From Verrucomicrobia bacterium UBA2281 (GTDB lineage Bacteria; Verrucomicrobiota; Kiritimatiellia; CAIQIC01; Lenti-01), in assembly GCA_002347655.1 (NCBI GenBank), contig DDWR01000024.1, positions 59,685 through 123,684 of the forward strand: a stretch of DNA of 64,000 nt, written 5' to 3'. Each line of letters opens with the position of its first letter. Positions within the stretch are counted from its first letter, which is position 1. The translations under genes and the position numbers were made by a program. Below are positions 5,351 to 26,584 of the stretch, one piece after another. The notes beneath the pieces are model-generated. The model made no database searches. It was not told where the DNA came from and was given only the letters and a program-made list of their open reading frames with translations.

Positions 5351-5585
5351 TGTCGACCCTCGTGTTCCTTTTTTAAATTGTCCTTGCGGCCGAGACCGGG
5401 CAAACGCCTTGCGTCCCGCGCCGCTGGGCGGTCGTCGCTTTTCCAACGCTTATTCGGATTTCTAGCTTAAAAACCAAAGCGTCGGCAACCGGTTTATTGT
5501 TCGTTTTGCGTTACGCCGCCGGTGCCTCGCGCTGGATGCCGGCCGTCTGGCCGCCGTCCCCGCATACCATCGAAAGCGCCCCCCC

Positions 5586-7793: not shown

Positions 7794-7947
7794 TCCTGGA
7801 ATGAAAATCCGCGGCGGAATTCGCCGCCATCACCGGCCGGAATCCTACCTTCCCCGCCTGGAAGCGCAACCTCCAATGCGGCCGGCAGGCGGATCCGGCG
7901 CGCCCCCCCGGCGCCGCAGGGCGTCCGGAAAGAGGCCTTTTTTGCCC

Positions 7948-7976
7948 TTGCATCCACCCGCCCCCCTCCGTATAGT
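7948..7976 (+). promoter_or_regulatory. sigma70-like promoter for rpsO (TTGCAT-17nt-TATAGT)
   Basis: TTGCAT at 7948-7953, 17-nt spacer, TATAGT at 7971-7976, about 35 nt upstream of the rpsO TTG start. It shares the block CCCCCCTCCGT..TATAGTC with the promoter at 56343. Confidence 0.45.
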
Positions 7977-8011
7977 CCGGCCTTCAATCAACCAGAAGAC
8001 AAGCAGCAAAG

Positions 8012-8293
8012 TTGGATCAAACAGTTATGATGGACAGCGCAGTCAAAGCGGCGATCAAGCAGGAATATCAACAGCACGAGAAGGATAGCGGCTCCGTGGA
8101 GGTCCAGGTGGCCCTCCTTTCCAAGCGGATCCAGGACCTGACCGGGCATCTTCAAACCCACAAGGGCGACCACAACTCGCGCCGCGGCCTGATCGTCATG
8201 GTCAGCCAACGCCGCCGGTTGCTGGACTACCTGCGCGACTCGGACCTCGCCCGCTACCAGAAGCTCATCGAGCGTCTCGGCCTGCGCCGCTAG
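8012..8293 (+). CDS. rpsO: 30S ribosomal protein S15
   Basis: 93 aa, ...[39 protein letters not shown]; TTG start in track (alternative ATG at MMDS a few codons in); immediately upstream of pnp. Confidence 0.95.
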
Positions 8294-8484
8294 TCCCCCG
8301 GGGGTCGGTTTCCCCCGTTTGGGGGAGCGCAGACCCCCGTCCGCTGGCGGCCTCCGCGGCCGTGGACGGACCGAGTCTTTCTCTTTCCTTTCAACGTGCC
8401 GCGCCGGGATCCCCGCCGCGCCGCGCCTCCGCGCGCACCGATGGAACAAGACAAGAAGAGAAGCAAGCAGCAAGGAAAGAAGAA

Positions 8485-10596
8485 ATGAAGAATACCACCT
8501 CCGTCAGCGTCGCCCTCGGCGACCAGACGTTGACGTTCGAAACGGGCCTGCTGGCCCGCCAGGCGGCCGGCCAGGCCACCTGCCAACTGGGAGAGACCAT
8601 GGTCTTCTCCGCCGTCTCCAACAGCAAGAAGCCGCGCGAAGGCGTCGATTTCTTCCCGCTGCAGGTCGAATACCGCGAGCGCTTCTACGCGGCGGGCCGC
8701 TTCCCCGGCGGCTATTTCAAGCGCGAAGGCCGCCCCACCGAGAAGGAAATCCTCACGGCGCGCATCACCGACCGCCCCATCCGCCCCCTGTTCGCCGAGG
8801 GCTACTACAACGAAGTCCAGATCAACAACGCCCTGATGACCTGCGACGGCGTCTATGAAAGCGACGCCCTCAGCGTCAACGCCGCCTCCGCCGCCCTCAT
8901 GCTCAGCGAACTGCCCTTCAACGGCCCCCTCGGCGCCGTCCGCGTCGGCCGCATCGATGGCCAGTTCATCCTGAATCCGACCCAGGAACAGACGCTCGTT
9001 TCGGACATCGACCTGATGTACGTCGGCAAGCGCGACCTCCCGATGATGATCGAAGGGTCCGCCCTGGAAGTCAGCAACGAGGACATGGTCGCCGCCATGA
9101 AGTTCGGCCACGAAGCCGTCGTGAAAATCTGCGACGCCCAGCTCGAACTGCGCGCCAAGATGGGCCTGCCGCCCAAGACCTTCACGCAGAAGAGCCTCGA
9201 TGCCGGGCAGATCGCCAAGCTCAACGAACTCTGCCGCGCCGATCTCACCGAAGCGCTCTTCACCGTCTCGAAAGTCGAACGCGGCAACAAGATGAGCGTC
9301 GTCTTCGACAAGGCCTTCGCCCAGATGCAGGAAATCTACGGCGCAGAGGTCATGAACGAGAAGTACTTCAAGATGATCTTCGACGCCGTCGAAATCGACA
9401 TCGTCCGCAAGGGCGTCCTCGACGAAAACCGCCGCATGGACGGCCGGGCGATGGATCAGCTCCGCCAGCTCGTCGCCGACGTGGCGATTCTCCCGCGCGT
9501 GCACGGGTCCTCGCTCTTCTCCCGGGGCGAAACCCAGGCGATCGCGACCGTCACCCTCGGCACCGGCCGCGACGAGCAGGAAATGGACGGCCTCACCGGC
9601 GGCCCGACCACGAAGCGCTTCACGCTGCATTACAACTTCCCGCCGTACAGCGTGGGCGAAGTCCGCCGGCTGGGCGGCCTGAACCGCCGCGAAATCGGCC
9701 ACGGCGCGCTCGCCGAACGCTCCATCGAACCGATGGTGCCGAAGGATTATCCCTACTCCGTGCGCGTGGTCTCCGAGATCATGGGCTCCAACGGCTCCTC
9801 CTCCATGGCCTCCATCTGCGCGGGCACCCTCGCCCTGATGGATGCCGGCGTGCCCCTGAAGAAGCCCGTCGCGGGCATCTCCATCGGCCTCGTCACCGGC
9901 GAAGGCAAGAAGCCCGTCCTGCTCACCGACATCCTCGGCGCCGAAGATCACTGCGGCGACATGGACTTCAAGGTCGGCGGCACGCGCGACGGCATCACCG
10001 GCTTCCAGGTCGATCTGAAGATCCACGGCCTGGACTGGGATCTGGTGAAGGGCGCCTTCGACCGCGCCCGGGAAGCCCGCCTGAAGATCCTCGACGTCAT
10101 GGAGCAGGCCCTGCCCGCCCCGCGTCCGGATCTCTCGCCCTACGCCCCGCGCATCGTCGTCGTCAACATCAACCCCGAGAAGATCGGCGCCCTCATCGGC
10201 CCCGGCGGCAAGAACATCCGCCGCATCACCGAAACCACCGGCACCCAGATCGACATCGAGGACGACGGCAAGGTCTCCATCTTCTCCAACAACAAGGAGA
10301 ACCTGGACGCCGCCCTGCGCGAAGTCTCGGCCCTCACGGCGGAAGCCGAGGTCGGCAAGATCTACCGCGCCACCGTCACCGGCATCAAGGACTTCGGCTG
10401 CTTCGCCGAGTTCCTCCCCGGCCAGGAAGGCCTCGTCCACATCAGCGAACTCGCCGACTTCCGCGTCAACCGCACGGAAGACGTCGTCAAGATGGGCGAG
10501 GAAATCTGGGTCAAGGTGCTCAGCGTGGAAGACAACGGCAAGGTCCGCCTCTCCCGCAAGGCCGCCATGGCCGAAAAGGGCGAAGCCAAGAAGTAG
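8485..10596 (+). CDS. pnp: polynucleotide phosphorylase/polyadenylase
   Basis: In-frame ATG at 8485 ([21 protein letters not shown]...) inside track ORF 8362..10596; RNase PH x2, KH and S1 domain sequence throughout; classic rpsO-pnp synteny. Confidence 0.95.
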
Positions 10597-14891: not shown

Positions 14892-17374
14892 TGAATCAGG
14901 TCCGTTTTCCCGCGGGACCGGCCTCCTTCACCCGCGACGCAAGGCCGCGGGGGTCGCCGCCAAGGGGTCAGTCCCGTAATCTAGTAATTTTTGGGGCCCT
15001 TGCCTGGCTGCTCGCCGCGCCCCTCGCCGCCACCGCCGCGCGCCTGGTCGAGAATTTCGCCCCCGGCACGGCCGGCGCGTGGAAGCCCTACCTGAAATCG
15101 CCCGCCGTGGTGGCCACGGCCGACGGTCTGGCCTTTCCCGCGCCGTTTGCGCAGGCCGTCGACCGCGCCGCGTGGGACAAGGCGGTCAACTTCGACCTCT
15201 CCGCCGCCGTCGCCTTCGAACTGGACGTCGCCTGTCCCGCGCCCGACGCCGTGCGCGCGCTGGGGCTGTACTTCAAGAGCGGCGCGGGCTGGTATGTCGC
15301 CAACAAACCCCTCGCCGGCCCCACGCTCCACACCCTCGTTTTCAACAAGAGCGACTTCACGACCGAAGGCCAGCCCGCCGGCTGGAACCGCATCGACGGC
15401 ATCCGCCTCTCTCCGTGGAAAGGCGCCCGCGCCGCGGACGTCGCGCTGGTCTTTCGCCGCCTCGCCACGGTCGAAGGCTCGGCGCTCGTCGTCGTGCGCG
15501 GCACGACGTCGTGCCCCGACGCCGGCGCCCGCACCGTCGCCGAAAAAACCGCCGCGCGCGTCAGCGGCCTGCTGATCGAAGCCGGCCTCGGCCATGCCCT
15601 CGTGACCGACGACGATCTGCCCAAGGGCGCGCTGAAAGACGCCCGCGTGGCGCTGCTGCCCTACAATCCCAATCCCACGCCGGCGCAGCTCAAGGCGCTG
15701 ACCGATTTCGTCGCCCGCGGCGGCAAGCTGGGCGTCTTCTACGGTTCGTCGCCCGCGCTGGCCGCCGCCTTGGGCTTCCGGCTCGGGCCCTACGTCAAGT
15801 CCGACCGCCCCGGCCGCTGGCGGTCCATCGTGTTCGCCGATCCCATGGGCGGATTGGTGCCGCCGCGCATCTGGCAGGATTCATCCAACCTCATGCCCGC
15901 GTTCCCCGCCGGCCCCGGCGCGCAGGTCGTCGCCTATTGGCACGACGCCCGCGACGTCCGCCAGCCCGAGCCCGCCCTCGTCGCCTCGCCGCGCGGCTTC
16001 TGGATGTCGCATATCCTGCAAAGCGACGATCAGCCCTCGAAGAAAGAACTCCTTGTGGCCTTGTGCGCGCGGCTCGATCCCGCGCTCTGGACGCCGGCCG
16101 CCCTCCGCGCCATGCAGGATGCCGGCCGCATCAACGACTACGCCGGGATCGCCAGCGCGCTGGCGGGCATCGCCCGCCAGTTGCCGCTCGCCGCGCGGCC
16201 CGGCGACGTCCGCGCCCTGCTTGACCAGGCCGCCGTGCTCTCCGCGCAGATCCAGACCGCCCTCGCCGGCGGCCAACCCCAGAAGGCCCTGTTGCTGGCC
16301 CGACGCCAGCGCCAGCTCCTGCTGCGCGCCGACGCCGCCGTCCAGCCGCCCCGGCCCGGCGAATTCGTCGGCGTGTGGGACCACGACGGTACCGGGTTCG
16401 TCCCCGGCGACTGGAATTTCACCGCGAATCTGCTCGCGGCCAACGGCGTCACCGCCATCTTCCCCAACGTCGTCTGGGGCGGCTGCGCGCACTATCCCTC
16501 CAAGTTCCTGCCCGCCTCCGCCACCCTGCGGCTCTACGGCGACCAGATCGCCGCCGGCCTCGCCGCCGCCAAGGCCAAGGGCCTCGAGTACCACGTCTGG
16601 ATGGTGCTGGGCAAACTCGACGGCGCGCCGCCCGAGTTCGTCGAGCGCATGAAGAAGGAAGGCCGCCTGCAGGTCTCCGACGCCGGCGTCGTGCGCCCGT
16701 GGCTGAGCCCCCACCACAACGCCAACCGCGCGCTGCTGCTCGCCGTCGTCGAGGAAATCGCGCGGAATTATCCGGGCATCGACGGCATCCACCTCGACTA
16801 CATCCGGCTGCCGGACTCGCTCAGCTGCTATTCCGCCTCCACCCGCGCGCGCTTCGAGTCCGACACCCGCAAGAAGTGCAAGGTCTGGCCCGCCGAGGTC
16901 AAGACCGGCGGCAAGCGCAACGCCGAGTTCCGCAAATGGCGCACCGCCGACGTCACCCGGCTCGTCGCCGACATCCGCGCCACGCTGCGCCGCGCGAATC
17001 CCCGCGCCAAGCTCTCCGCCGCGGTCTTCGGCATCGCCGCGCCCGACGGCGGCAACATCGCGCAATACTGGCCCGACTGGCTCAAGGCCGGCACCGTCGA
17101 TTTCCTGACGCCGATGAACTACACCGAGTCGTCCGCCGAATTCGCCCGCCTCGTGCGCACGCAGGTTGCCTATCCCGGCGCCGCCGGCCGCATTATCCCC
17201 GGCATCGGCGTCACGGCCGACGAATCGCGCCTCGATCCCGCGCAGGTCGTGCGCCAGATCGCGCTGCTGCGCCAAGCCGGCTGCCCCGGCTTCATGCTCT
17301 TCGACCTCTCCGGCACCCTCCGCGACGAAACCCTCCCCGCGCTGCGGCAGGGCATCACCCGGCCCCTTCCTTGA
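14891..17374 (+). CDS. secreted glycoside-hydrolase-like family 10 (GHL10/DUF187) protein with a large N-terminal extension
   Basis: C-terminal region carries the GHL10 signature (IDGIHLDYIRLPD...WPDWLKAGTVDFLTPMNY). A signal-peptide-like segment (LVIFGALAWLLAAPLAATAA) follows the first in-frame GTG at 14891. The track ORF start at 14786 lies inside the palindromic operator repeats and is unlikely to be real. Confidence 0.6.
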   Translation: MNQVRFPAGPASFTRDARPRGSPPRGQSRNLVIFGALAWLLAAPLAATAARLVENFAPGTAGAWKPYLKSPAVVATADGLAFPAPFAQAVDRAAWDKAVNFDLSAAVAFELDVACPAPDAVRALGLYFKSGAGWYVANKPLAGPTLHTLVFNKSDFTTEGQPAGWNRIDGIRLSPWKGARAADVALVFRRLATVEGSALVVVRGTTSCPDAGARTVAEKTAARVSGLLIEAGLGHALVTDDDLPKGALKDARVALLPYNPNPTPAQLKALTDFVARGGKLGVFYGSSPALAAALGFRLGPYVKSDRPGRWRSIVFADPMGGLVPPRIWQDSSNLMPAFPAGPGAQVVAYWHDARDVRQPEPALVASPRGFWMSHILQSDDQPSKKELLVALCARLDPALWTPAALRAMQDAGRINDYAGIASALAGIARQLPLAARPGDVRALLDQAAVLSAQIQTALAGGQPQKALLLARRQRQLLLRADAAVQPPRPGEFVGVWDHDGTGFVPGDWNFTANLLAANGVTAIFPNVVWGGCAHYPSKFLPASATLRLYGDQIAAGLAAAKAKGLEYHVWMVLGKLDGAPPEFVERMKKEGRLQVSDAGVVRPWLSPHHNANRALLLAVVEEIARNYPGIDGIHLDYIRLPDSLSCYSASTRARFESDTRKKCKVWPAEVKTGGKRNAEFRKWRTADVTRLVADIRATLRRANPRAKLSAAVFGIAAPDGGNIAQYWPDWLKAGTVDFLTPMNYTESSAEFARLVRTQVAYPGAAGRIIPGIGVTADESRLDPAQVVRQIALLRQAGCPGFMLFDLSGTLRDETLPALRQGITRPLP

Positions 17375-17379
17375 ACGTT

Positions 17380-17470
17380 GGTTATTGGGCGTTGGATATT
17401 GGTCATTGAAGCCCGACGGCTTTCGATCTCAATTTCCAATAACCCATATTCAATATCCAATCATCAAGTG
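17380..17470. repeat. MITE-like AT-rich inverted-repeat element, copy A
   Basis: ggttattgggcgttggatattggtcattgaagcc ... aatttccaataacccatattcaatatccaatcatcaagtgaac; arms contain TTGGATATTGG / CCAATATCCAA and a cttgaac/ttcaagtgaac terminus. Confidence 0.55.
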
Positions 17471-17562
17471 AACCGCCCTCTCGACAAATGTTAAATTATC
17501 ATTTGCCGCCATTCCCGGCTTGATTTTCAATCAATTCTATACATGATGCATGGCGTGATTTT

Positions 17563-17604
17563 CAGACGCCAGACGCCAGACGCCAGACGCCAGACGCCAG
17601 ACGC
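17563..17604. repeat. heptanucleotide microsatellite (CAGACGC)x6
   Basis: Six perfect tandem 7-bp units ending about 25 nt upstream of the ATG at 17629. Confidence 0.8.
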
Positions 17605-17747
17605 TTCGGCGCTGGTGGATTCCTGCTGATGCCAAGCATCTGACGGTTATCCTGTTTCTGCTGGCAAAACCGTTCTCCGCCAGCGCCGATGAAGTCACCG
17701 TTGCGTTTTCCCCGCGCGGCGAGGCGCTCAATCTGGTCCTGAACGAG

Positions 17748-19448
17748 TTGCGCGCCGCCACCGGTCGCGTGGATCTCGCCCAGTTCTACGTCACCCACCC
17801 CGACTTGATCGATGCGCTGTGTGCATTGCCGGCCAAAGGCATCCAAGTGCGCCTGCTGACGGACGTCACCATGGGCGAGGCGGCCCAGCAACCCACTTTG
17901 GACAAGCTGACTCGCCACGGCGTGCTGCTCTACTTGATCGAACCGCCCAAGCGCGGCAAGATGCACATGAAGTGCCTCGTGGTGGACGCCAAAACCGTCG
18001 TCGCAGGCACCGCCAACTGGACCCAGCAGGCTTTCGATCTGAATTTCGAGGACACCCTCAAAATCGCCTCGCCCGCGCTGGCTGCGGTCTATTTGGCCAA
18101 GATGGATGAATTGACGTCCTCCGACATGGCCTCCGAAGTCCATGGCTCCGGCGCGAAGCCCGCGCGCCTGAATTTCCCCCTTCCCAAGCCACCGGTCGTT
18201 CGTACGCCTCCCGGCCGGGTGAACGCACCCGGGGGCCGAAAATTCACGGTGCCGGCTCCCGAGAGCTTTTTCCTGCCCAATCCCGAACCGTTCGACCGCT
18301 TGGCCGCGCAAATCCGTTCCGCCACCAGCCGCATCGACGTCGCCATCTTCCTCTTGAACGAGGACCGGATCGTTTCCGCTTTGACCGAACGCGCCAAAGC
18401 CCGAGGTTGCGCCATCCGGATTCTGGCCGACGTCGGCATGCTGGGCTCGGGCAATCTGGAAGTCCTCCAAAACCTGGCGACCGCCGGCGTCGAAATCCGC
18501 ACGTTCGGTTCGGACCGCGAAAACCTGCATATGAAAACCGGCGTCATCGACGGCCATTTCTTCTGGACGGGTTCCGCCAACTGGACCAAAGGGGCCATGT
18601 CCTTGAACGTGGAAGATATGCTCTGTTTCGATGCTCCCGAACTGGCCGCCTGGTACGGCAAATGGATGGATGGATTCGCCAAAGTCTGCCAGCCGTTTGC
18701 TCCGCTTCAGGCGCAAACGGCGTCCAACGCGACCCATCCGGCGCCCGCCGGAAAATGGCCGGTCGGCCTTCCGTCCACGGCACCCCGCGCCGATTGGGAT
18801 CATCTGGTGGAACACGTGGATTTTCCGCCGTTGGAAACCAACGCCTGGACCGCCTACCTGCCGGACGAGGCCTATGCTCCCGTGCTGCTCGACCTGATCC
18901 GCAAAGCCCACCAAACCATCTTGATCGCTATGTACAAGGTCGCCGAATCGGGCGAAAAAGCCGCGGCGGGTTTCCATGGGCAAATAGTCTCCGAACTGGA
19001 AAAAGCCGCCGCCCGAGGCGTATATGTGAGCCTTTTGCTCCACGTGCCCGTGTCGCCGCAAGACGCCCTGTACGACGCCCATTCCCATTGGGCCGAGCGT
19101 TTGCGCGCCAAAGGCATCGACGTCCGCCTGAGCCTCCCCACCCTGCCCATGCACGAGAAATTCGTGTCGGTGGACCTGTGCAAGGTCCTTGTCGGTTCGC
19201 ACAACTGGTCGGAAGGCGCCCTCGATGGCTCCCGCGTCTACGAGTCCAGCGCCCTCGTCGTCTACCCGCAGCAGCAAAAATGGCTGGCCGACTACTTCTT
19301 CAGCCGCCCCTCGGTCAGCGACATGTCCAGCCGCGAGGCCTGGGAACGCGAACTCACCCTCATCCGCCATGCCAAGAACATGGATGATAATCTTGAAAAA
19401 TACCAATTCCTCGAATCGCTCGGCGTGGAAACGGAGGCCACCCCGTGA
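17748..19448 (+). CDS. phospholipase D-family protein with three HKD motifs (probably secreted; true start likely the ATG near 17629)
   Basis: HKD motifs HMKCLVVDAKTVVAGTANWT, HMKTGVIDGHFFWTGSANWT and HEKFVSVDLCKVLVGSHNWS. An upstream ATG at ~17629 plus a signal peptide (ILTVILFLLAKPFSASA|DEV) is in frame in my reading of the displayed bases. The track instead starts at TTG 17748 and shows the ATG frame as MPSI*, a 1-nt discrepancy near 17640. Confidence 0.75.
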   Translation: MRAATGRVDLAQFYVTHPDLIDALCALPAKGIQVRLLTDVTMGEAAQQPTLDKLTRHGVLLYLIEPPKRGKMHMKCLVVDAKTVVAGTANWTQQAFDLNFEDTLKIASPALAAVYLAKMDELTSSDMASEVHGSGAKPARLNFPLPKPPVVRTPPGRVNAPGGRKFTVPAPESFFLPNPEPFDRLAAQIRSATSRIDVAIFLLNEDRIVSALTERAKARGCAIRILADVGMLGSGNLEVLQNLATAGVEIRTFGSDRENLHMKTGVIDGHFFWTGSANWTKGAMSLNVEDMLCFDAPELAAWYGKWMDGFAKVCQPFAPLQAQTASNATHPAPAGKWPVGLPSTAPRADWDHLVEHVDFPPLETNAWTAYLPDEAYAPVLLDLIRKAHQTILIAMYKVAESGEKAAAGFHGQIVSELEKAAARGVYVSLLLHVPVSPQDALYDAHSHWAERLRAKGIDVRLSLPTLPMHEKFVSVDLCKVLVGSHNWSEGALDGSRVYESSALVVYPQQQKWLADYFFSRPSVSDMSSREAWERELTLIRHAKNMDDNLEKYQFLESLGVETEATP

Positions 19449-19527
19449 GTACCGCCATGGCCCATGTTCGGAAAGGTAGGGCGGTCTCGCCGAGACCGCC
19501 GCGCTCCTCCGTGTCGTCCGGGCTGTT

Positions 19528-19600
19528 CGATCCAATTGGTCATTGGATATTGGGCGTTGGACATTGGATGTTGAGATTTCTCCAGCCTGTAGCCCGGCGC
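19528..19600. repeat. MITE-like element, copy B
   Basis: caattggtcattggatattgggcgttggacattggatgttgag; same TTGGATATTGG-containing unit as copy A, again immediately upstream of a PLD gene. Confidence 0.5.
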
Positions 19601-19675
19601 GTTGAGCCGGGCGGATTTCGATCCCACCGGGTCAACGCCCTGGCCTACAGCCGATCCCCATCCGTTCTGAGCACT

Positions 19676-20422
19676 TTGGGCGTGCTCCTTCTTCTATGCC
19701 CCGCCGTTCGAGCCGACGAAATTTCCCTCCGCGATGGCACCAGCCTGACCGGCCGGGTCCTCATGGTTCAATCCGGCGGCTACGTGTTCCAGGACGGCGC
19801 CCCCCGCGGAACGATGCAAAACATCCCCAAGGCCGCCGTTCGATATGCCCTCTACGACGATCCCGCGCAGGCCGACCGCGTCCTCGGAATCCGCAGTGCG
19901 CTGCGTCACGCCGAAGGGGAGGCCAGTTTTGTCCGCCTCCTCCCCACCCGCCCTTTCGGCCAAGCCATCCTCGAAGCCGTCCAAAACGCGCATGCCTCCA
20001 TTTGGGTCAGCGCCTACTATATTTCCGGAAGCTCCACGAGCCCTATCAAGGATTTCTACGCCGCCCTGGCCGAGAAGGCACAACAAGGGCTCGACGTGGT
20101 CGTCGTCAGCGAATACGGCCCCGGCACCAGCGCCCGCGTGCGCGAAGCCACCTACAACTTCGCCCGCGAACTGGAGCAATCCGGCATCCGCGTCCTGTTC
20201 ATGAGCGGCTACCGCATCCTGCACAAGAAGATGATCCTGGTGGACAGCCAAATCGCCCTGCTCGGCAGCGCCAACCTCACCATGGCCGGCACCCTCCAAA
20301 GCGACGAAATGAACGTCGAGATCCGCCAACCCGCCTATGTAGCCAGAATGCGTAAGGATTTTGAAAAGATCATGGCGTCCGCCCTAACGGCGGATGCTGC
20401 CAATGCAAAGGAGATAAAGTGA
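19676..20422 (+). CDS. secreted single-HKD phospholipase D/Nuc-like protein
   Basis: HKD motif HKKMILVDSQIALLGSANLT. A likely TTG/GTG start at 19676/19682 gives the signal peptide MGVLLLLCPAVRA|DEI. The track ORF starts at 19445, but that N-terminus is read through the MITE. The stop overlaps the next gene's GTG (GTGA). Confidence 0.65.
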   Translation: MGVLLLLCPAVRADEISLRDGTSLTGRVLMVQSGGYVFQDGAPRGTMQNIPKAAVRYALYDDPAQADRVLGIRSALRHAEGEASFVRLLPTRPFGQAILEAVQNAHASIWVSAYYISGSSTSPIKDFYAALAEKAQQGLDVVVVSEYGPGTSARVREATYNFARELEQSGIRVLFMSGYRILHKKMILVDSQIALLGSANLTMAGTLQSDEMNVEIRQPAYVARMRKDFEKIMASALTADAANAKEIK

Positions 20423-21075
20423 AATACAGAAATCACACCGGCCTTTGGACCAGCTCAGTCTGGCTCGCGGGGCTATTGCTTATAGGGCTTGTTTTGCCTG
20501 CTCGGCCCGCCGGAAAATCCCCCGGAGATTGCAAGGTTGAGGAATGTCAAGAATGGGATGAATACGAACACGATTGCGTTGATATGCCAAAAAATTGTGT
20601 TATTTTGGCGTGGTTTGGAGAAGACCGCGATGATGGAGATTGCAATCAGGGAATCACCTACAACACCAGGGATGTCCCGATATGCGGGACAAAAACTAAA
20701 ACCATCAAATATCAAGAGCACAAAAGCTGGTGTAAAGGTCACTACGCCTATGAACACGATTCAAGGAATGTTATATATACATGGATAATTACAACATGCC
20801 GTCCCCGATATGTAGGCCCTTCAATCGCTGATGACATTAAAAATGCCGCAGGGCTAGCTGCTTCCTGCCTTGAGGTGCTGCTGCAATTAGTTGCAGCAAC
20901 CCAAGGGGCGGGCAACTATCCAGATGCGTCTAATGTCGCAAGTTGTCTTGAGAGTCTTGCCAATTATTATAATTATGATGTTTCTACTTACTACTCCGGT
21001 TGCGAGGTGGCTGACATCCAATGGCAGGGGGCGGTTTTTAAATGCACCTTGTTGGGCGAAGGATGCGGCGAGTAA
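20419..21075 (+). CDS. hypothetical Cys-rich secreted protein (low-GC insert)
   Basis: GTG start with AAGGAG RBS 7 nt upstream; N-terminal TM/signal (LWTSSVWLAGLLLIGLVLPA); 16 Cys in 218 aa; local GC about 45% against about 68% for the flanks. Confidence 0.6.
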   Translation: MKYRNHTGLWTSSVWLAGLLLIGLVLPARPAGKSPGDCKVEECQEWDEYEHDCVDMPKNCVILAWFGEDRDDGDCNQGITYNTRDVPICGTKTKTIKYQEHKSWCKGHYAYEHDSRNVIYTWIITTCRPRYVGPSIADDIKNAAGLAASCLEVLLQLVAATQGAGNYPDASNVASCLESLANYYNYDVSTYYSGCEVADIQWQGAVFKCTLLGEGCGE

Positions 21076-21098
21076 TGTTTTTTACGAGGGATATATAA

Positions 21099-22109
21099 AT
21101 GAATAGATTCGATAAGTTGATGATTTGTATTGGGATGGCCGGGGTTCTACTCCTGAAAGGGTTCGCATACGGACAAGCACCCTCCCGGCAGGAGTATGTC
21201 CAAGCACTATTCAACCCAATTGCATTTCCAGCACAACATGTTCTTCACATGGACATCCAGAAGGAAAAGGCGGTTCAAGTCGTCGCGGATGGCGCCCTAC
21301 TTAATGAGCGTATTCGCGAATGTTATGAGTCGAGCGAAAGAATTCGGAGCGAATTTTCAACTCTGGAGGCATATGCGGCCGAGGTGAGGACGACTCAGTC
21401 CAATCAATTCCAGAAAACCAGCCAACGCATCACGACCTCCACGCAGTGCCAGCATCTTCGGGAATACGGAACCGACGGCGATCATGTGTCCAAGGAGGTC
21501 ATTCAATACCGCGTTGACGGGCAAAACTGGCAGACGCTCCAGATCGACCACGACCGACTTACTGCCTCCTTGCAGAAAGGAGCGAAAGGCATTTTCACCG
21601 ATTATCGAGAGACGGGCATGTTTAATAGCATGGACCAGTTACTGCTGATTATATTTTTCCGAATCCTGCCGAACATGAGCCAAGACGCCGCGGTCGATGC
21701 GTTGTGTAGCGGCGAAACCCTGTCGGCAGGCACCAAGTCAATGAAGCTGGAATCCCGGGAGGATGCCGATCCAGCCCATCTTCTTTTGACCTATCAAGAC
21801 GCGGTGGAGTCTTCGTCTATCGAATTCCAACTGGACCCTAAGAAGATCGGCGTGCTGATAAGCAAGAAATCCGCAATGCCTCAAGCTACCTCCCTGTGGG
21901 CTTTCACCCGGGATGCAACAATTCAAAATATCAGCTCTGCCTATCCGCGAAAAACCGTATTTACAAGGTTAGATACTGCCGGTCGCCTGCAGGAAAGAGA
22001 ATCGGTTACTTTAGAAGATATTTCGGAGGCGGCAGATTGGAATGTCCGACAGCTTTGGGCCGATAAAATGGACGAAATTAAAGTTTATCAAGTGTCGGTG
22101 CAGCCGTAG
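21099..22109 (+). CDS. hypothetical secreted protein (low-GC insert)
   Basis: ATG with GAGGG RBS; N-terminal hydrophobic segment MICIGMAGVLLL; 336 aa; no recognisable family; AT-rich codon usage unlike the neighbours. Confidence 0.6.
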   Translation: MNRFDKLMICIGMAGVLLLKGFAYGQAPSRQEYVQALFNPIAFPAQHVLHMDIQKEKAVQVVADGALLNERIRECYESSERIRSEFSTLEAYAAEVRTTQSNQFQKTSQRITTSTQCQHLREYGTDGDHVSKEVIQYRVDGQNWQTLQIDHDRLTASLQKGAKGIFTDYRETGMFNSMDQLLLIIFFRILPNMSQDAAVDALCSGETLSAGTKSMKLESREDADPAHLLLTYQDAVESSSIEFQLDPKKIGVLISKKSAMPQATSLWAFTRDATIQNISSAYPRKTVFTRLDTAGRLQERESVTLEDISEAADWNVRQLWADKMDEIKVYQVSVQP

Positions 22110-22131
22110 TTTGTCCTGATAATTGTCTATG

Positions 22132-22160
22132 GGCCGCCTCTATGAGGCGGCCGTTTTTTA
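22132..22160 (+). terminator. intrinsic terminator closing the low-GC insert
   Basis: GGCCGCCTC-TATG-GAGGCGGCC followed by TTTTTT. Confidence 0.75.
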
Positions 22161-22261
22161 TCTCTCTGGGCAAACAGACCTTTGGATTCTAATTTAATGT
22201 TTTCATACGGAGGTATTAGCATGGTATTTGTAGTCACCTAGCCAGTCCAAGGATATTTTTC

Positions 22262-23134
22262 ATGACCATCACCGCCCAGATCGTCGCCGACAGCGTTTCG
22301 CCGCAGGGCATCCGCCTCTCCACGCTTTCGCTGAAATATCCCCGCTGGATCCACGCGGAATTCATGACGCACCGCCTGTTTTCGCGCAACGCCAGCAGCT
22401 CGCGCGCCGTGCCGTCGAAGCGCCTGCGCGCGCTGGAGCGCGAGTATCCCCTCTGGTGGGGCGCCAACATTCCCGGCATGCAGGCCGGCGGGAAGCTCTC
22501 CGACGAGCAGGGCACCAAGGCCAAGGCCATCTGGGACCGCATGGCCGACGCCTGCATCGAAGGCGTCGCCGAGCTCGCCGAGCTGGGCCTGCACAAGCAG
22601 TGGGCCAACCGCCCGCTGGAATGGTTCACGTCCATTTCCGTGCTTGTGTCGGCCACGGCGTTCGACAATTTCTTCGGCGTGCGCTGGCATCCCGACGCGC
22701 AGCCCGAAATCCAGGAACTGGCCCGGCAGATGTTTTCGGCCCTGCAGTCCGCCACGCCCCGCCCCCTGGAACCCGACCAGTGGCACCTGCCCTACGTCTC
22801 CGCCGACGAGGAAAAAGCCCTCGGTCTCGACGTCGCCCGGCGCTGCTCGGCCGCGCGCTGCGCGCGCGTGTCCTACCTCAACCACGACGGCACCACGCCC
22901 AACGTCGCCAAGGACCTCGACACGTTCGCCAAGCTGGCCGGCGATCCCAACGGCCCGCCGCACCCGCTGCACGCCTCGCCGATGGAACACCAGGCCACGC
23001 CCGACCGCCTGCGCGACGCCGCCGATGCCGAATCGTGGCAGTTCCCGGCCCAGCACGGCAATTTCCGCGGCTGGCGGCAGTATCGCAAGATGCTCTCCAA
23101 CGAGCACATCGCGAGATTCACGCCGCCCGCTTGA
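22262..23134 (+). CDS. divergent ThyX-like (flavin-dependent thymidylate synthase family) protein
   Basis: LKYPRWIHAEFMTHRLFSRNASSSRA aligns with the ThyX RHRx7SxRY motif ([27 protein letters not shown]) but has T for the first R and A for Y. The C-terminal GNFRGWRQYRKMLSNEH matches ThyX NYRAWRHFIAMRASEH. A middle segment FFGVRWHPDAQPEIQELA also resembles that motif. Confidence 0.65.
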   Translation: MTITAQIVADSVSPQGIRLSTLSLKYPRWIHAEFMTHRLFSRNASSSRAVPSKRLRALEREYPLWWGANIPGMQAGGKLSDEQGTKAKAIWDRMADACIEGVAELAELGLHKQWANRPLEWFTSISVLVSATAFDNFFGVRWHPDAQPEIQELARQMFSALQSATPRPLEPDQWHLPYVSADEEKALGLDVARRCSAARCARVSYLNHDGTTPNVAKDLDTFAKLAGDPNGPPHPLHASPMEHQATPDRLRDAADAESWQFPAQHGNFRGWRQYRKMLSNEHIARFTPPA

Positions 23135-23149
23135 CGAATGGTTTTCCGG

Positions 23150-23225
23150 CGGGCCCCACGGTCTTGTGCCGTGGGGGAGCAAACTTTGCCTCCCACGGGA
23201 CAAGCCCGTGGGGGGGCTAAGATCC
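23150..23225. repeat. pair of REP-like hairpins (CCCACGG-N6-7-CCGTGGG)
   Basis: cccacggtcttgtgccgtggg and cccacgggacaagcccgtggg between the ThyX-like and RNR-like genes. Confidence 0.5.
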
Positions 23226-23311
23226 AATCGGGCCAAACTTCCGCTTTCCTCTCCCCTCCTTTTGACCTAGAATCCGCCCGAATTTTGCACCGCGTTTTTC
23301 CGGAGAACACC

Positions 23312-25297
23312 ATGCCCGAAACCTACCAGCCGTCGCTCCGCGCCCAGATCCTCACCCGCCGCACCTACAACCGCGTCCTCGACGACAAAGGCACCGTCTT
23401 CGAGACCTGGGCGCAGACCGTGGATCGCGTCATCGAACACCAGCGCTGGCTGTGGAAGCGCCAGATGCGCCGCGCGCTCAACAAGACGCAGGAAGCGGAA
23501 CTTGAAGAGCTCCGCGGCCTGCTCCTCGCCCGCAAGGTCGGCGTCGCCGGCCGCACGCTGTGGCTCGGCGGCACCGAAATCTCGAAGGTCCGCGAAGCCT
23601 GCCAGTTCAATTGCGCCCATCTCGAAATCCAGACCGTCGACGACATGGTGGACGCGCTCTGGCTCCTGCTGCAGGGCTGCGGCGTGGGCGTCACGCCGAA
23701 ATCCGGCGGCATCAGCGGCTTCACCCAGCCGATCCTCGACATCCAGATCGTCCGCTCCACGCGCCAGGACAAGAACGGGCGCGATGGCAACTTGGAAACC
23801 TGGGATCCCGAAACCAAGGTCTGGACCATCAGCGTCGGCGATTCTGCCGAAGCCTGGGCGAAGTCCGTCGGCAAGCTGCTCGCCGGCAAGTACGCGGCCG
23901 ACAAGCTGATCCTCGATTTCTCGGAAATCCGCCCCGCCGGCACGCGCCTCACCGGCTACGGCTGGATCGGCCAAGGCGACGAGACGATCTCCGTGGCCTA
24001 CCGGGCCATCGCCGAAATCATGAACCGCCGCGCGGGCCAGCTTCTGCGCAAGATGGACATCCACGACGTCTGCAACTGGCTGGGCACGATCCTCAGCACG
24101 CGCCGCTCGGCGGAAATCAGCCTGTTCGAATACGGCTCCCCCGAATGGCAGGAATTCGCCGTCTGCAAGAAGGACTACTGGAGCAAAGGCCAGCCCCAGC
24201 GCGGCATGTCCAACAATTCGCTCGTTTTCTACGACAAGCCCACGCGCGCGGAATTGCGCGGCCTCTTCGACCTCATGCTCGCCGCGGGCGGCTCGGAGCC
24301 CGGCTTCATCAACGGCGCGGCGGCGCTCAACCGCGCGCCGTGGTTCTCCGGCGTCAATCCCTGCGCCGAAATCCTGCTGGGCAACCGCGCGTTCTGCAAC
24401 CTGACGACGATCGATCTCGCCAAGTTCAAGGACAACCCCAGCGGCATGCACCGCGCCATTTCCGTCATCGCGCGCGCCAACTACCGCCAGACCTGCGTCA
24501 ACCTCAAGGACGGCATCCTCCAGCACTCCTGGCACGAGAACAACGACTTCCTGCACCTCTGCGGCGTATCGCTCACCGGCGTCGTGCGCCGGCCGGATCT
24601 CGGCCCCTACGAGCTGCGCCTGCTGCGCAACGCGGCCATCATGGGCGCCTATTCCATGGCCGACGAACTCGGCCTGCCGCGGCCCAAGAACGTCACCACC
24701 CTCAAGCCCGAGGGTACCATCTCGAAGTGCTACGACACGACGGAAGGCGCCCACAAGCCGCTCGCGCGCCACGTTTTCAACAACGTCACCTTCGTCAAGC
24801 ACGACCCGCTCGTGCCCGTCCTGCGCGAGGCCGGCTACAAGATCATGCCCCACCCCAACGGCACCGGCGACTGGGTCATCACGCTGCCCGTGGCGTGGGA
24901 CGACGTGGATTTCGAGAAGGTCGGCGACCTCGAAGTGAACGAAGAATCCGCCATCGACCAGCTCGAGCGGTACAAGCTTCTGATGGACAACTACGTCGAG
25001 CAGAACTGCTCGATCACCGTCAGCTACGATCCCTCGGAAGTGGACGCCATCGTGGAGTGGCTGCTGCAATATTGGGACCACTACGTCGGCGTGTCGTTCC
25101 TGCTGCGCGCCGATCCGCTGAAGACCGCCGCGGATCTCGGCTTCCCCTACCTGCCGCAACAGCCCGTCTCCAAGGCCGAATACGACGCCTACGTCGCCAG
25201 CCTCAAGCCCATCGATCTCGAGCGGGTCAAGGCCCAGTCCGAGGACGCCGTGGACATGGGCAACGAATGCGCCGGCGGCGCCTGTCCCGTCCGCTGA
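23312..25297 (+). CDS. divergent class II (B12-type) ribonucleotide reductase-like protein
   Basis: ATG at 23312 inside track ORF 23138..25297; the RNR active-site block VNPCAEILLGNRAFCNLTTIDL corresponds to NPCGEIxL...CNLGSINL; loop QGCGVGVTPKSGG corresponds to GGGVGxxxSxLRPKG; NrdJ-like N-terminus (LRAQILTRRTYNRVLDDKGTVFETWAQTVDRV); C-terminal Cys pair ECAGGACPVR; 661 aa. Confidence 0.7.
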   Translation: MPETYQPSLRAQILTRRTYNRVLDDKGTVFETWAQTVDRVIEHQRWLWKRQMRRALNKTQEAELEELRGLLLARKVGVAGRTLWLGGTEISKVREACQFNCAHLEIQTVDDMVDALWLLLQGCGVGVTPKSGGISGFTQPILDIQIVRSTRQDKNGRDGNLETWDPETKVWTISVGDSAEAWAKSVGKLLAGKYAADKLILDFSEIRPAGTRLTGYGWIGQGDETISVAYRAIAEIMNRRAGQLLRKMDIHDVCNWLGTILSTRRSAEISLFEYGSPEWQEFAVCKKDYWSKGQPQRGMSNNSLVFYDKPTRAELRGLFDLMLAAGGSEPGFINGAAALNRAPWFSGVNPCAEILLGNRAFCNLTTIDLAKFKDNPSGMHRAISVIARANYRQTCVNLKDGILQHSWHENNDFLHLCGVSLTGVVRRPDLGPYELRLLRNAAIMGAYSMADELGLPRPKNVTTLKPEGTISKCYDTTEGAHKPLARHVFNNVTFVKHDPLVPVLREAGYKIMPHPNGTGDWVITLPVAWDDVDFEKVGDLEVNEESAIDQLERYKLLMDNYVEQNCSITVSYDPSEVDAIVEWLLQYWDHYVGVSFLLRADPLKTAADLGFPYLPQQPVSKAEYDAYVASLKPIDLERVKAQSEDAVDMGNECAGGACPVR

Positions 25298-25301
25298 CCG
25301 C

Positions 25302-25919
25302 ATGAAGCGCCTCGCTCTCGCCGCAGTGCTCGTCCTGGCCGCCGCGTCCGGCGCGCGGGCCGACGGCGGCGTGCTGGCGGCCACCGCCGCCTCGACCCTC
25401 GGGGCGCGCGCCGCCAGCGGCTTCGTCAACGTCCCCTACGCCGGGCTCGGCGTCTTCGCCTCCCGCTGGGATAGCCAGGACTACGGCACGCTGACCGGCT
25501 ACGGCGTCCGGCTTGGCTGGAACGTGATCGAGCACCTCGGCCTCGAAGCCCGCGCGTCCTACTACGAATCCAAGGACGACGAAATCGAGACCACCGTCCT
25601 GCCTCTCGAAGCCGCCCTCGTCCTGCGCCTGCCGTTCCACCGCCGCTTCGTCCCCTACGTCGGCGGCGGCGCCGGCTATTATTTCAAGGACGCCGAATAC
25701 GAAGACGATACCGACACGTGGGAATCGTCGGAGGAAGTCGCCGGCTACTTCGGGATGGCCGGCCTCAATTTCTACCTCGGCGCCTTCTCTCTCTTCGCCG
25801 AGGCCAAGTACAACCTCGTCGGCACCGACGACGATCTCGAATGGCGCGGCGACGACGTCGAAGCGAAAAACTCCCTCGACGGCTTCTCCTTCTCCGCCGG
25901 ATTCAAGCTCGGGTTCTGA
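25302..25919 (+). CDS. outer-membrane beta-barrel protein (OmpA-like beta-barrel domain family)
   Basis: Signal peptide MKRLALAAVLVLAAASGARA, alternating amphipathic beta-strands, C-terminal ...SAGFKLGF; paralogous to the next gene. Confidence 0.7.
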   Translation: MKRLALAAVLVLAAASGARADGGVLAATAASTLGARAASGFVNVPYAGLGVFASRWDSQDYGTLTGYGVRLGWNVIEHLGLEARASYYESKDDEIETTVLPLEAALVLRLPFHRRFVPYVGGGAGYYFKDAEYEDDTDTWESSEEVAGYFGMAGLNFYLGAFSLFAEAKYNLVGTDDDLEWRGDDVEAKNSLDGFSFSAGFKLGF

Positions 25920-25999
25920 TTCCGTATTTTCCGGCTTGCCTCCCCGGTCGCCCCGGCCCATGCTTGGATCGGGTTTTCCCACAACCAAAGGAGCGCACC

Positions 26000-26584
26000 A
26001 TGAAAAAAACGATCGTTGGAATTCTGTTGGTTCTCGTTCTCGCGCCTCTGGCCTTCGCGGCCGGCGACGGAGCCGGCGGCTTGGGTGTTTTCGGTTCCTG
26101 GTGGGACAGCAAGGATTACGGCGCGCTCTACGGCGGCGGCGTCCGCTTCGGCGCCGAGATCTTCAGCGGCCTCGCCCTCGAAGCCCGCGTCTCCTACCTG
26201 GTCTCCGAAGACCGGGACGAGGTCGTCGAAGGCCGCAACGTCTCGACCGAACTGGAACTCGTGCCCCTTGAAGCGGCCGTCACCTGGACGCTCGACGTCA
26301 GCGAATCCATCAAGCCCTACGTCGGCGCAGGCGCGGGCTACTACCTGAAGAACGTCGATTGGAAAGCCGACGACGTGATCGACGAGGCCGACGACAAGGA
26401 CAGCGTCGGCTACTTCGCCCTCGCCGGCGCCAACGTCCTCCTCGGCCCCGTCGTGCTCTTCGCCGAAGCCAAATACAACATCATCCAGGACGACGACGAG
26501 TGGCGCTGGCAAGGCAGCGACACCAAGCAGAAAAACTCCCTCGACGGCTTCGCCGCCAACGTCGGCCTGAAACTCGCGTTCTAG
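26000..26584 (+). CDS. outer-membrane beta-barrel protein, paralog of the upstream gene
   Basis: ATG at 26000 with AAAGGAG RBS; signal peptide MKKTIVGILLVLVLAPLAFA; ends ...ANVGLKLAF; about 40% identical by eye to 25302..25919. Confidence 0.7.
   Translation: MKKTIVGILLVLVLAPLAFAAGDGAGGLGVFGSWWDSKDYGALYGGGVRFGAEIFSGLALEARVSYLVSEDRDEVVEGRNVSTELELVPLEAAVTWTLDVSESIKPYVGAGAGYYLKNVDWKADDVIDEADDKDSVGYFALAGANVLLGPVVLFAEAKYNIIQDDDEWRWQGSDTKQKNSLDGFAANVGLKLAF

Follow-up and report, generated by a model that had tools for sequence, protein, structure and literature searches.

Flavin-dependent thymidylate synthase (ThyX) is a drug target, and the nucleotide metabolism of phages is under active study. 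Canonical ThyX proteins, such as those of Thermotoga maritima (TM0449; PDB 1O26 family) and Mycobacterium tuberculosis (2AF6), carry a segment composed of helices alpha1 and alpha2 and the HxxPxEH motif ahead of the core. In these enzymes, the first Arg of the RHR motif hydrogen-bonds the isoalloxazine ring and dUMP, the flavin adenine dinucleotide (FAD) phosphates are bound by Arg190(Mtb)/Arg165(Hp), and the Tyr after SxR acts as a lid that covers both uracil C5 and flavin N5 (PMC6514825). Among ribonucleotide reductases (RNRs), the structure closest to the one treated here is the ribonucleoside-triphosphate reductase (RTPR) of Lactobacillus leichmannii (1L1L). Here, we analyze a ThyX-like gene and an adjacent RTPR-type gene on a 64,000-nucleotide stretch of contig DDWR01000024.1 from Verrucomicrobia bacterium UBA2281 (“the window” refers to this whole 64-kb stretch). 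The GC content of the window is ∼0.66, and the nearest genomes are Kiritimatiellae/Verrucomicrobiota metagenome-assembled genomes (MAGs).

Both genes lie where a preliminary description of this DNA had placed them. The first (22262..23134, + strand) encodes a 290-aa rearranged homologue of the ThyX family of flavin-dependent thymidylate synthases. The second (23312..25297, + strand) encodes a 661-aa RTPR-type monomeric class II (adenosylcobalamin-dependent) ribonucleoside-triphosphate reductase. A 177-nt spacer separates the two genes, and a gap of only 4 nt separates the reductase stop from the next gene. Alignment supports a reductase start at 23312 (MPETYQ...), which is shared by all relatives; an in-frame extension upstream, to 23138, was rejected as spurious, as it crosses a repeat resembling repetitive extragenic palindromic (REP) elements. 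Our analysis covered homology, fold, the retention and loss of residues, motifs across the families, synteny, purifying selection, and host-like composition. We conclude that the pair probably represents resident, conserved deoxynucleotide-supply genes, an RTPR and a flavin-dependent thymidylate synthase, that share ancestry with nucleotide-metabolism modules of phages. The “altered catalytic motifs” that had drawn attention to these genes turn out to be a false lead.

The 661-aa protein matches the NCBIfam equivalog TIGR02505 (adenosylcobalamin-dependent ribonucleoside-triphosphate reductase) with 535 bits (cutoff, 340.05) over residues 14 to 661 (profile positions 15 to 724) and phrog_367 with an E value of 9e-160, both of which uphold the proposed RNR homology. 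When its AlphaFold (AF2) model (pLDDT 81) was searched with Foldseek, 1L1L was closest (E 7.7e-35; TM 0.70), and the dimeric NrdJ of T. maritima scored lower (E ∼1e-16; TM ∼0.52). In an end-to-end alignment, C101, C351, C362, C653, and C658 of the reductase correspond to C119, C408, C419, C731, and C736 of 1L1L, and N349 and E353 correspond to N406 and E410. These five catalytic cysteines, the Asn, and the Glu are unchanged across 25 aligned relatives, the window protein being counted among them. The thiyl-radical loop N349-P350-C351-A352-E353 (24356..24370, + strand) is thus the counterpart of N406-P-C408-G-E410, and the C-terminal redox cysteine pair C653-x4-C658 (25268..25285, + strand) is that of C731/C736, with both cysteines invariant.

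The preliminary description read NPCAE, GCGVG, and the C-terminal cysteine pair correctly, and all three prove to be features of the clade. Of the 25 clade members, 20 have A at the fourth position of the loop, 3 have V, and 2 have G, and N, P, C, and E never vary; NPCAE, as opposed to NPCGE in 1L1L, is thus the usual form in the phage-rich clade of the window protein. Likewise, G122-C123-G124-V125-G126 lies in a stretch, QGCGVGF, that is nearly invariant among the 25. The reported change of LRPKG to TPKSG arose from a misalignment; in the 1L1L alignment, the DIRPYG loop of the L. leichmannii enzyme pairs with E205-I-R-P-A-G210, which is intact. The length deficit that had been noted holds against the 739-aa 1L1L protein, which is 78 aa longer, but not within the clade, where the other 24 aligned reductases measure 642 to 667 aa. 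Relative to 1L1L, the N terminus, the insertion domain, and one loop are each shorter. The region of the insertion domain that mimics a dimer interface (PF21995) is ∼33 aa shorter and matches with 20.7 bits at residues 162 to 223, below the cutoff of 27. Identity to the L. leichmannii enzyme is only ∼21%, yet the two are alike in end-to-end alignment, radical loop, redox cysteines, CxxxxC tail, DIRPYG/EIRPAG loop, and fold. Judged from its sequence, the reductase is an ordinary RTPR of an already known kind with a predicted intact catalytic set. This equivalog-level assignment speaks against the earlier suggestion that the gene is a neofunctionalized paralog.

The homology of the 290-aa protein to ThyX was also confirmed by profile search (Pfam Thy1, PF02511, 50 bits against a gathering cutoff of 24.8), with the match limited to residues 21 to 166, equivalent to profile positions 60 to 190 of 191. 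The phage profile phrog_85 (“thymidylate synthase”) covers its full length (E 6.8e-82). A ThyX fold is supported by fold matches to ThyX alone, and in a BFVD fold search, family members aligned over ∼300 columns but canonical phage ThyX proteins over only 150 to 170. We then located the remainder of the canonical fold with profiles. A profile of 34 family members searched against PDB paired residues 196 to 245 with residues 31 to 75 of the tagged T. maritima protein. With hhalign, sub-alignments of the family were compared to a canonical alignment, using a verified T. maritima (Tm) sequence: core residues 21 to 166 matched Tm 63 to 199 (P = 2e-6), and C-terminal residues 195 to 243 alone (SAARCARVSY...HASPMEH) matched Tm 21 to 59 (P = 2.6e-6; probability, 88.6%). 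The relocation is also visible by eye in an alignment with two phage ThyX proteins of canonical order. On these alignments, the segment at residues 195 to 243 (CSAARCARVSY...HASPMEH; 22844..22990, + strand), which corresponds to helices alpha1 and alpha2 and the HxxPxEH flavin/folate motif of T. maritima ThyX, follows the core here, whereas it precedes the core in canonical ThyX.

What had been taken for a second, internal occurrence of the C-terminal ThyX motif is, according to hhalign, this relocated pair of N-terminal helices. The relocation is detectable only through profiles: single-sequence phmmer of the ThyX-like protein against PDB returned only noise, and a Pfam search with the C-terminal 128 residues alone gave no match even at an E value of ≤10. 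Predicted secondary structure suggests that the N-terminal beta-hairpin stays in place; hhalign gave no equivalence between residues 1 to 20 and canonical beta1/beta2, the segment being too short. If the hairpin is in place, the rearrangement would be a segment relocation and not a simple circular permutation. Conserved blocks that canonical ThyX lacks, along with a conserved tail of 45 residues, also set the window protein apart. We considered whether the conserved tail sequence G266-N-F-x-G-W-x-Q-Y-R275-K is the relic of a second copy, with R275 replacing the lost R78, and rejected this idea, as hhalign produced no such alignment.

The ThyX signature block, residues 36 to 49 (T-H-R-L-F-S-R-N-A-S-S-S-R-A; 22367..22408, + strand), takes the place of canonical R-H-R-x-x-S-x-x-x-x-S-x-R-Y. 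The motif RHRxxSxxxxSxR(Y) is not matched, the sequence being THRLFSRNASSSRA instead, in which the H, the second R, both S residues, and the last R are kept, with other residues in place of the first R and the Y. RHR had therefore been read correctly as THR (T36-H37-R38) and SxRY as SSRA (S46-S47-R48-A49). In the hhalign alignments, residues kept between T. maritima and the window protein include H79=H37, R80=R38, S83=S41, N85=N43, S88=S46, R90=R48, N169=N136, and R174=R141 in the core and R25=R199, R28=R202, S30=S204, H53=H237, T55=S239, E58=E242, and H59=H243 in the relocated segment. Replaced residues are R78 by T36, Y84 by R42, E86 by A44, Y91 by A49, R165 by T132, and H178 by D145. T. maritima R147 aligns to N116 and appears shifted, as the invariant R117 adjoins it.

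The first Arg of RHR, the FAD-phosphate Arg, and the lid Tyr are thus all lost. Residues that contact uracil or stack on folate and flavin (S88, R90, R174, H53, and E58) are present as invariant S46, R48, R141, H237, and E242. Five of the eight FAD/dUMP contacts listed in PMC6514825 are kept, and these include the uracil/phosphate contacts: Ser71/50 (T55 in T. maritima; S239 here), Arg199/174 (R174; R141), Ser105/84 (S88; S46), Arg107/86 (R90; R48), and Arg87/66, equated by spacing with R28. The mapping among the three numbering schemes is deduced from motif spacing.

These substitutions are not peculiar to the window. THR together with SSRA was found in 115 of 116 family proteins and in 57 of the 58 genome loci retrieved, and RHR together with SxRY was found in all 120 canonical ThyX proteins retrieved. 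Among 34 family sequences, with identities down to 50%, 60 columns are invariant. The subfamily comprises at least 4,110 clusters (50% identity) at an E value of ≤1e-30 and 6,156 at ≤1e-3. The window protein carries its marks, namely, a full-length phrog_85 match, THR...SSRA, and a C-terminal SAARCARVSY...HxSPxEH. We conclude that the gene adds a member to a rearranged ThyX subfamily that is catalogued but uncharacterized, whereas the reductase is of a kind already known. Based on sequence conservation, THR, SSRA, NPCAE, and GCGVG are family-wide signatures and neither local decay nor a sign of new function in this genome. The departure of all four motifs from the textbook forms could have suggested the decay of one or both genes into inactive relics; the same residues, however, are invariant or clade typical in thousands of homologues. 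Substitutions that define a subfamily of thousands likewise leave nothing genome specific on which to base a neofunctionalized ThyX paralog, as had been considered.

We scanned genomes for ThyX-like loci, taking one genome per species, and obtained 353 loci. The top 20, at 79 to 99% identity, are all from Kiritimatiellae/Verrucomicrobiota-type MAGs, after which identity drops to ≤48%. In 17 of the 20, the gene directly after the thyX-like gene is the reductase gene. The contigs of L011 and L026 stop at the thyX-like gene, and that of L014 stops ∼150 nt past it, which leaves L015 as the only real exception. Synteny of the pair extends to ∼15 Kiritimatiellae species. Orthologues from ∼20 Kiritimatiellae/Verrucomicrobiota species carry the same substitutions in intact, full-length reading frames, one of the two signs that the preliminary description had itself named as pointing to lineage-typical enzymes. 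Collinearity with L001 (GCA_040770285.1) extends to both sides of the pair: upstream lie genes for PNPase, an AMP-binding enzyme, an epimerase, and GHL10, and downstream lie those for AllF/AllG and a cyclase. Compared to six relatives, dN/dS is 0.03 to 0.20 for the thyX-like gene and 0.03 to 0.11 for the reductase gene. GC content at third codon positions (GC3) is 0.90 and 0.91, respectively, close to that of the neighboring AllF gene (0.906). Given the synteny, the low dN/dS, and the host-like GC3, both genes are under strong purifying selection and appear to be resident, functional, and long held. The low dN/dS and the intact frames also run counter to the relic explanation, which we consider vanishingly improbable and, on these conservation data, effectively refuted.

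The nearest relatives of both proteins outside the lineage are on phage-like contigs. For the RTPR, these are 75% identical on L006, 67% on L090, and 63% on the T7-like L007 and the myophage L008; for the ThyX-like protein, they are 61% identical on L092, 54% on L091, and 50% on L004, a 185-kb phage contig. In L090, the RTPR and a rearranged ThyX are three genes apart, and loci of Rhizobium and Hoeflea also show the thyX-RTPR arrangement, with deoxynucleoside monophosphate (dNMP) kinase and dUTPase genes. Most simply, a module of phage type would have become fixed in an ancestor of the Kiritimatiellae lineage, with no direction of transfer implied.

An ancestry shared with phages raises the alternative that the principal pathway is formed by other thymidylate synthase and RNR genes in the genome, which the pair, as a domesticated remnant derived from a phage, would supplement as an accessory module. 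The phage-like setting of the nearest relatives beyond Kiritimatiellae and the recurrence of the thyX-RTPR(-dUTPase) module in Rhizobium, in Hoeflea, and on a phage contig both fit this explanation. So does the position of the pair beside an insertion hot spot (containing a RAYT in L001 and PLD genes and low-GC ORFs here), as does the missing adjacency in L015. However, no phage structural, integrase, or replication gene lies near the pair, in the window or in the relatives. The surrounding backbone is kept across species with saturated synonymous divergence (dS up to 1.5), and GC3 is the same as that of native genes. We consider the accessory explanation possible but the less likely one. The question it raises is one of dispensability rather than activity, and the enzymology that we propose would hold under it as well. 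A tblastn search of the 64-kb window with T. maritima ThyX and E. coli ThyA detected no second thymidylate synthase, a result that says nothing about the rest of the genome.

Returning to the pair as resident deoxynucleotide-supply genes, we infer the enzymatic activities, the co-transcription of the two genes, and their role as the main (housekeeping) source of deoxynucleoside triphosphates (dNTPs) and dTMP. In the reductase, homolysis of adenosylcobalamin would generate a thiyl radical on C351, with C101/C362 supplying reducing equivalents and N349/E353 assisting. A thioredoxin- or glutaredoxin-type reductant would provide electrons, relayed inward by C653/C658, and the output would be dNTPs, formed independently of oxygen. 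The ThyX-like protein would produce dTMP by methylating dUMP, using methylene-tetrahydrofolate and reduced flavin. Uracil would be bound by the retained S46, R48, R141, and R28, and flavin and folate by H37, R38, H237, S239, E242, and H243, the last four supplied by the C-terminal segment. The suggestion in the preliminary description that these are unusual but working housekeeping genes is largely borne out by the shared substitutions, synteny, selection, GC3, and profile matches.

Several observations weigh against this proposal. The score of the ThyX-like protein against the thyX equivalog TIGR02170 (53.7 bits) is below the cutoff of 87.9. The canonical flavin contacts are gone throughout the family (R78 to T36, R165 to T132, and Y91 to A49), and the changes of E86 to A44 and H178 to D145 are family wide as well. 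In L015 (JBFXHR010000044.1, 845-1714), a rearranged thyX (88% identical) is followed by genes for iPGM and HypD, with no adjoining RTPR, so that the pairing does not extend to all of the class Kiritimatiellia. A promoter scan around the pair found nothing. Our literature searches turned up no enzyme assay of any member of the rearranged ThyX subfamily, and the evidence from Pseudomonas phage PaP1 is correlative. Finally, the housekeeping status is putative, being suggested by conservation.

The loss of the flavin contacts also bears on what the subfamily as a whole may catalyze. The THR-type proteins might modify pyrimidine C5 in another flavin-dependent way, for example, by methylating UMP, as PolB does, or by methylating or hydroxymethylating dCMP, or they might use another flavin-binding mode or cofactor. 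We regard this as very doubtful. The loss of R78, R165, and the Y91 lid, together with the gain of new invariant blocks, would amount to a rebuilt flavin pocket, and there is a small chance that the subfamily is a structurally distinct class of flavin-dependent pyrimidine methylases that may use flavin differently or differ in substrate or product. PolB, a ThyX-like UMP/dUMP C5-methylase of polyoxin biosynthesis (PDB 4P5A), is no better matched by the window protein than ordinary ThyX is. Sequential alignment suggests that its segment order is canonical, unlike that of the window protein, and no nucleoside-antibiotic gene cluster surrounds the ThyX-like gene in the window. Overall, a different activity for the whole rearranged subfamily is unlikely.

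The subfamily extends well beyond the Kiritimatiellae. Records of cultured phages that include a member number 1,034, mostly annotated as thymidylate synthase, and the phages include N4-like, rV5-like, Phapecoctavirus, Pakpunavirus, ICP1, phiCbK-like, and other types. Genes of the dUTPase/Dcd family and genes for dNMP kinase and RNR adjoin the subfamily gene in phage and prophage loci. In Eremiobacterota/Vulcanimicrobiota, the gene is in a nonphage chromosomal setting. On a complete Eremiobacterota chromosome (L044; OY969579.1), it lies beside ilvC/ilvB/leuA, and in ∼20 Eremiobacterota/Vulcanimicrobiota species (e.g., within L034 to L063), an M48 peptidase gene adjoins it, the neighbor being only 34 to 48% identical. 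The rearranged ThyX looks like a vertically inherited core gene in Eremiobacterota and may be the sole thymidylate synthase of those Eremiobacterota/Vulcanimicrobiota.

We made several other observations on ThyX relatives. Eight family members of 550 to 650 aa (P0368, P0414, P0418, P0437, P0471, P0473, P0486, and P0504) match the profile in two stretches and may contain inteins or be fusion proteins. Near the RTPR genes of L006 and L007 are phage ThyX genes of canonical order (L006:5925-6620 and L007:6358-7143) in which RHR reads FKH-M/Q and an extra residue precedes the Ser (FKHMVGFSYNEVSRRYV), a second divergent ThyX signature. In the L004 phage (185-kb contig; 867-8519), a rearranged ThyX occurs with a 7-deazaguanine DNA-modification gene set consisting of PTPS/QueD, a radical SAM QueE-like protein, a TGT/DpdA-like protein, and GTP cyclohydrolase I.

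The spacer between the two genes contains a REPIN-like doublet of REP-like hairpins (23154..23213), an inverted repeat with 22-nt arms that are 91% complementary and units at 23155-23175 and 23192-23212. Four copies of its motif, CCCACGG-N7-CCGTGGG, are present in the window (14871, 23155, 23192, and 26684) against 0.02 expected. The palindrome family is dispersed across the lineage (L001, L009 to L016, L022, and L028), in some cases as inverted doublets. In the thyX-RTPR spacer itself, relatives closer to the window (L009, L010, L014, and L016) have a doublet or single copy, and more distant ones have none; this variation between species suggests recent REP mobility. A Y1_Tnp (RAYT-type) transposase gene adjoins the thyX-like gene in L001 to L003, and no RAYT was found within the 64-kb window. 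A search of Rfam (E ≤ 1) over 21800-25600 gave one chance-level match, on the REP doublet.

Upstream of the thyX-like gene is the intrinsic terminator of the preceding low-GC gene (22132..22160, + strand), formed by GGCCGCCTC-tat-GAGGCGGCC (22132-22152) and a T run and distinct from the REP element. On its upstream side, the thyX-like transcription unit is delimited by this terminator. The pair is therefore not bracketed by REP hairpins, as had been stated: the doublet lies between the genes, the upstream structure is a terminator, and downstream the next gene begins after 4 nt. The reported adjacency to a PLD/low-GC island is real, with GC falling to 0.51 at 20 to 22 kb compared to ∼0.66 for the window. 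The island ORFs at 20419-21075 and 21099-22109 have GC3 values of 0.46 and 0.57, compared to 0.90 in the pair. They are without homologues and have no Pfam or PADLOC match. Before them are two PLD-domain genes, one at 17748-19448 with three PLDc_2 stretches and one at 19445-20422 with weak DrmC-like PLD-domain matches in PADLOC; neither the ThyX-like gene nor the reductase gene matches in PADLOC. The whole region at 17369-22261 is an insertion hot spot, a nonconserved stretch in an otherwise collinear backbone. Elsewhere, the hot spot contains a Y1/RAYT transposase (L001) or different, nonhomologous low-GC filler (L009, whose ThyX-like and RTPR proteins each share 99% identity with those of the window). 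Directly after the reductase are tandem outer-membrane beta-barrel paralogues (PF13505; 25302-25919 and 26009-26584), which are ∼47% identical to each other. Between relatives, this block (25302-26584) diverges much faster than the neighboring genes.

Taken together, a phage-style thyX-RTPR module is apparently a stable chromosomal feature in Kiritimatiellae, with the ThyX subfamily also fixed in Eremiobacterota. The locus is a case of nucleotide-metabolism gene exchange between phages and cells, with no direction implied, involving conserved genes of dNTP supply. Only the rearranged ThyX architecture is a moderately novel point; our literature searches found no description of a permuted or rearranged ThyX and no structure of a member. 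The ThyX subfamily of many therapeutic and model phages (N4-like, rV5-like, PaP1-like, and ICP1) has undergone a nonsequential rearrangement, and three flavin contacts are gone.

The systems most like the window gene are the PHROG 85 thymidylate synthases of phages (PaP1 gp110, N4-like, rV5-like, and ICP1), which have the same architecture and signature and are often linked to RNR genes. Gp110 of Pseudomonas phage PaP1 is a full-length member, with 38% identity to the window protein (E 6e-62), and its ThyX gene is adjoined by a class I RNR. This protein is reported to be highly expressed during infection while thymidine rises, a relationship that is correlative only (PMC5377924). The two loci differ in that the partner in PaP1 is a class I RNR, whereas the window gene has an RTPR partner and is chromosomal, set in a conserved bacterial backbone, and ameliorated in GC content.

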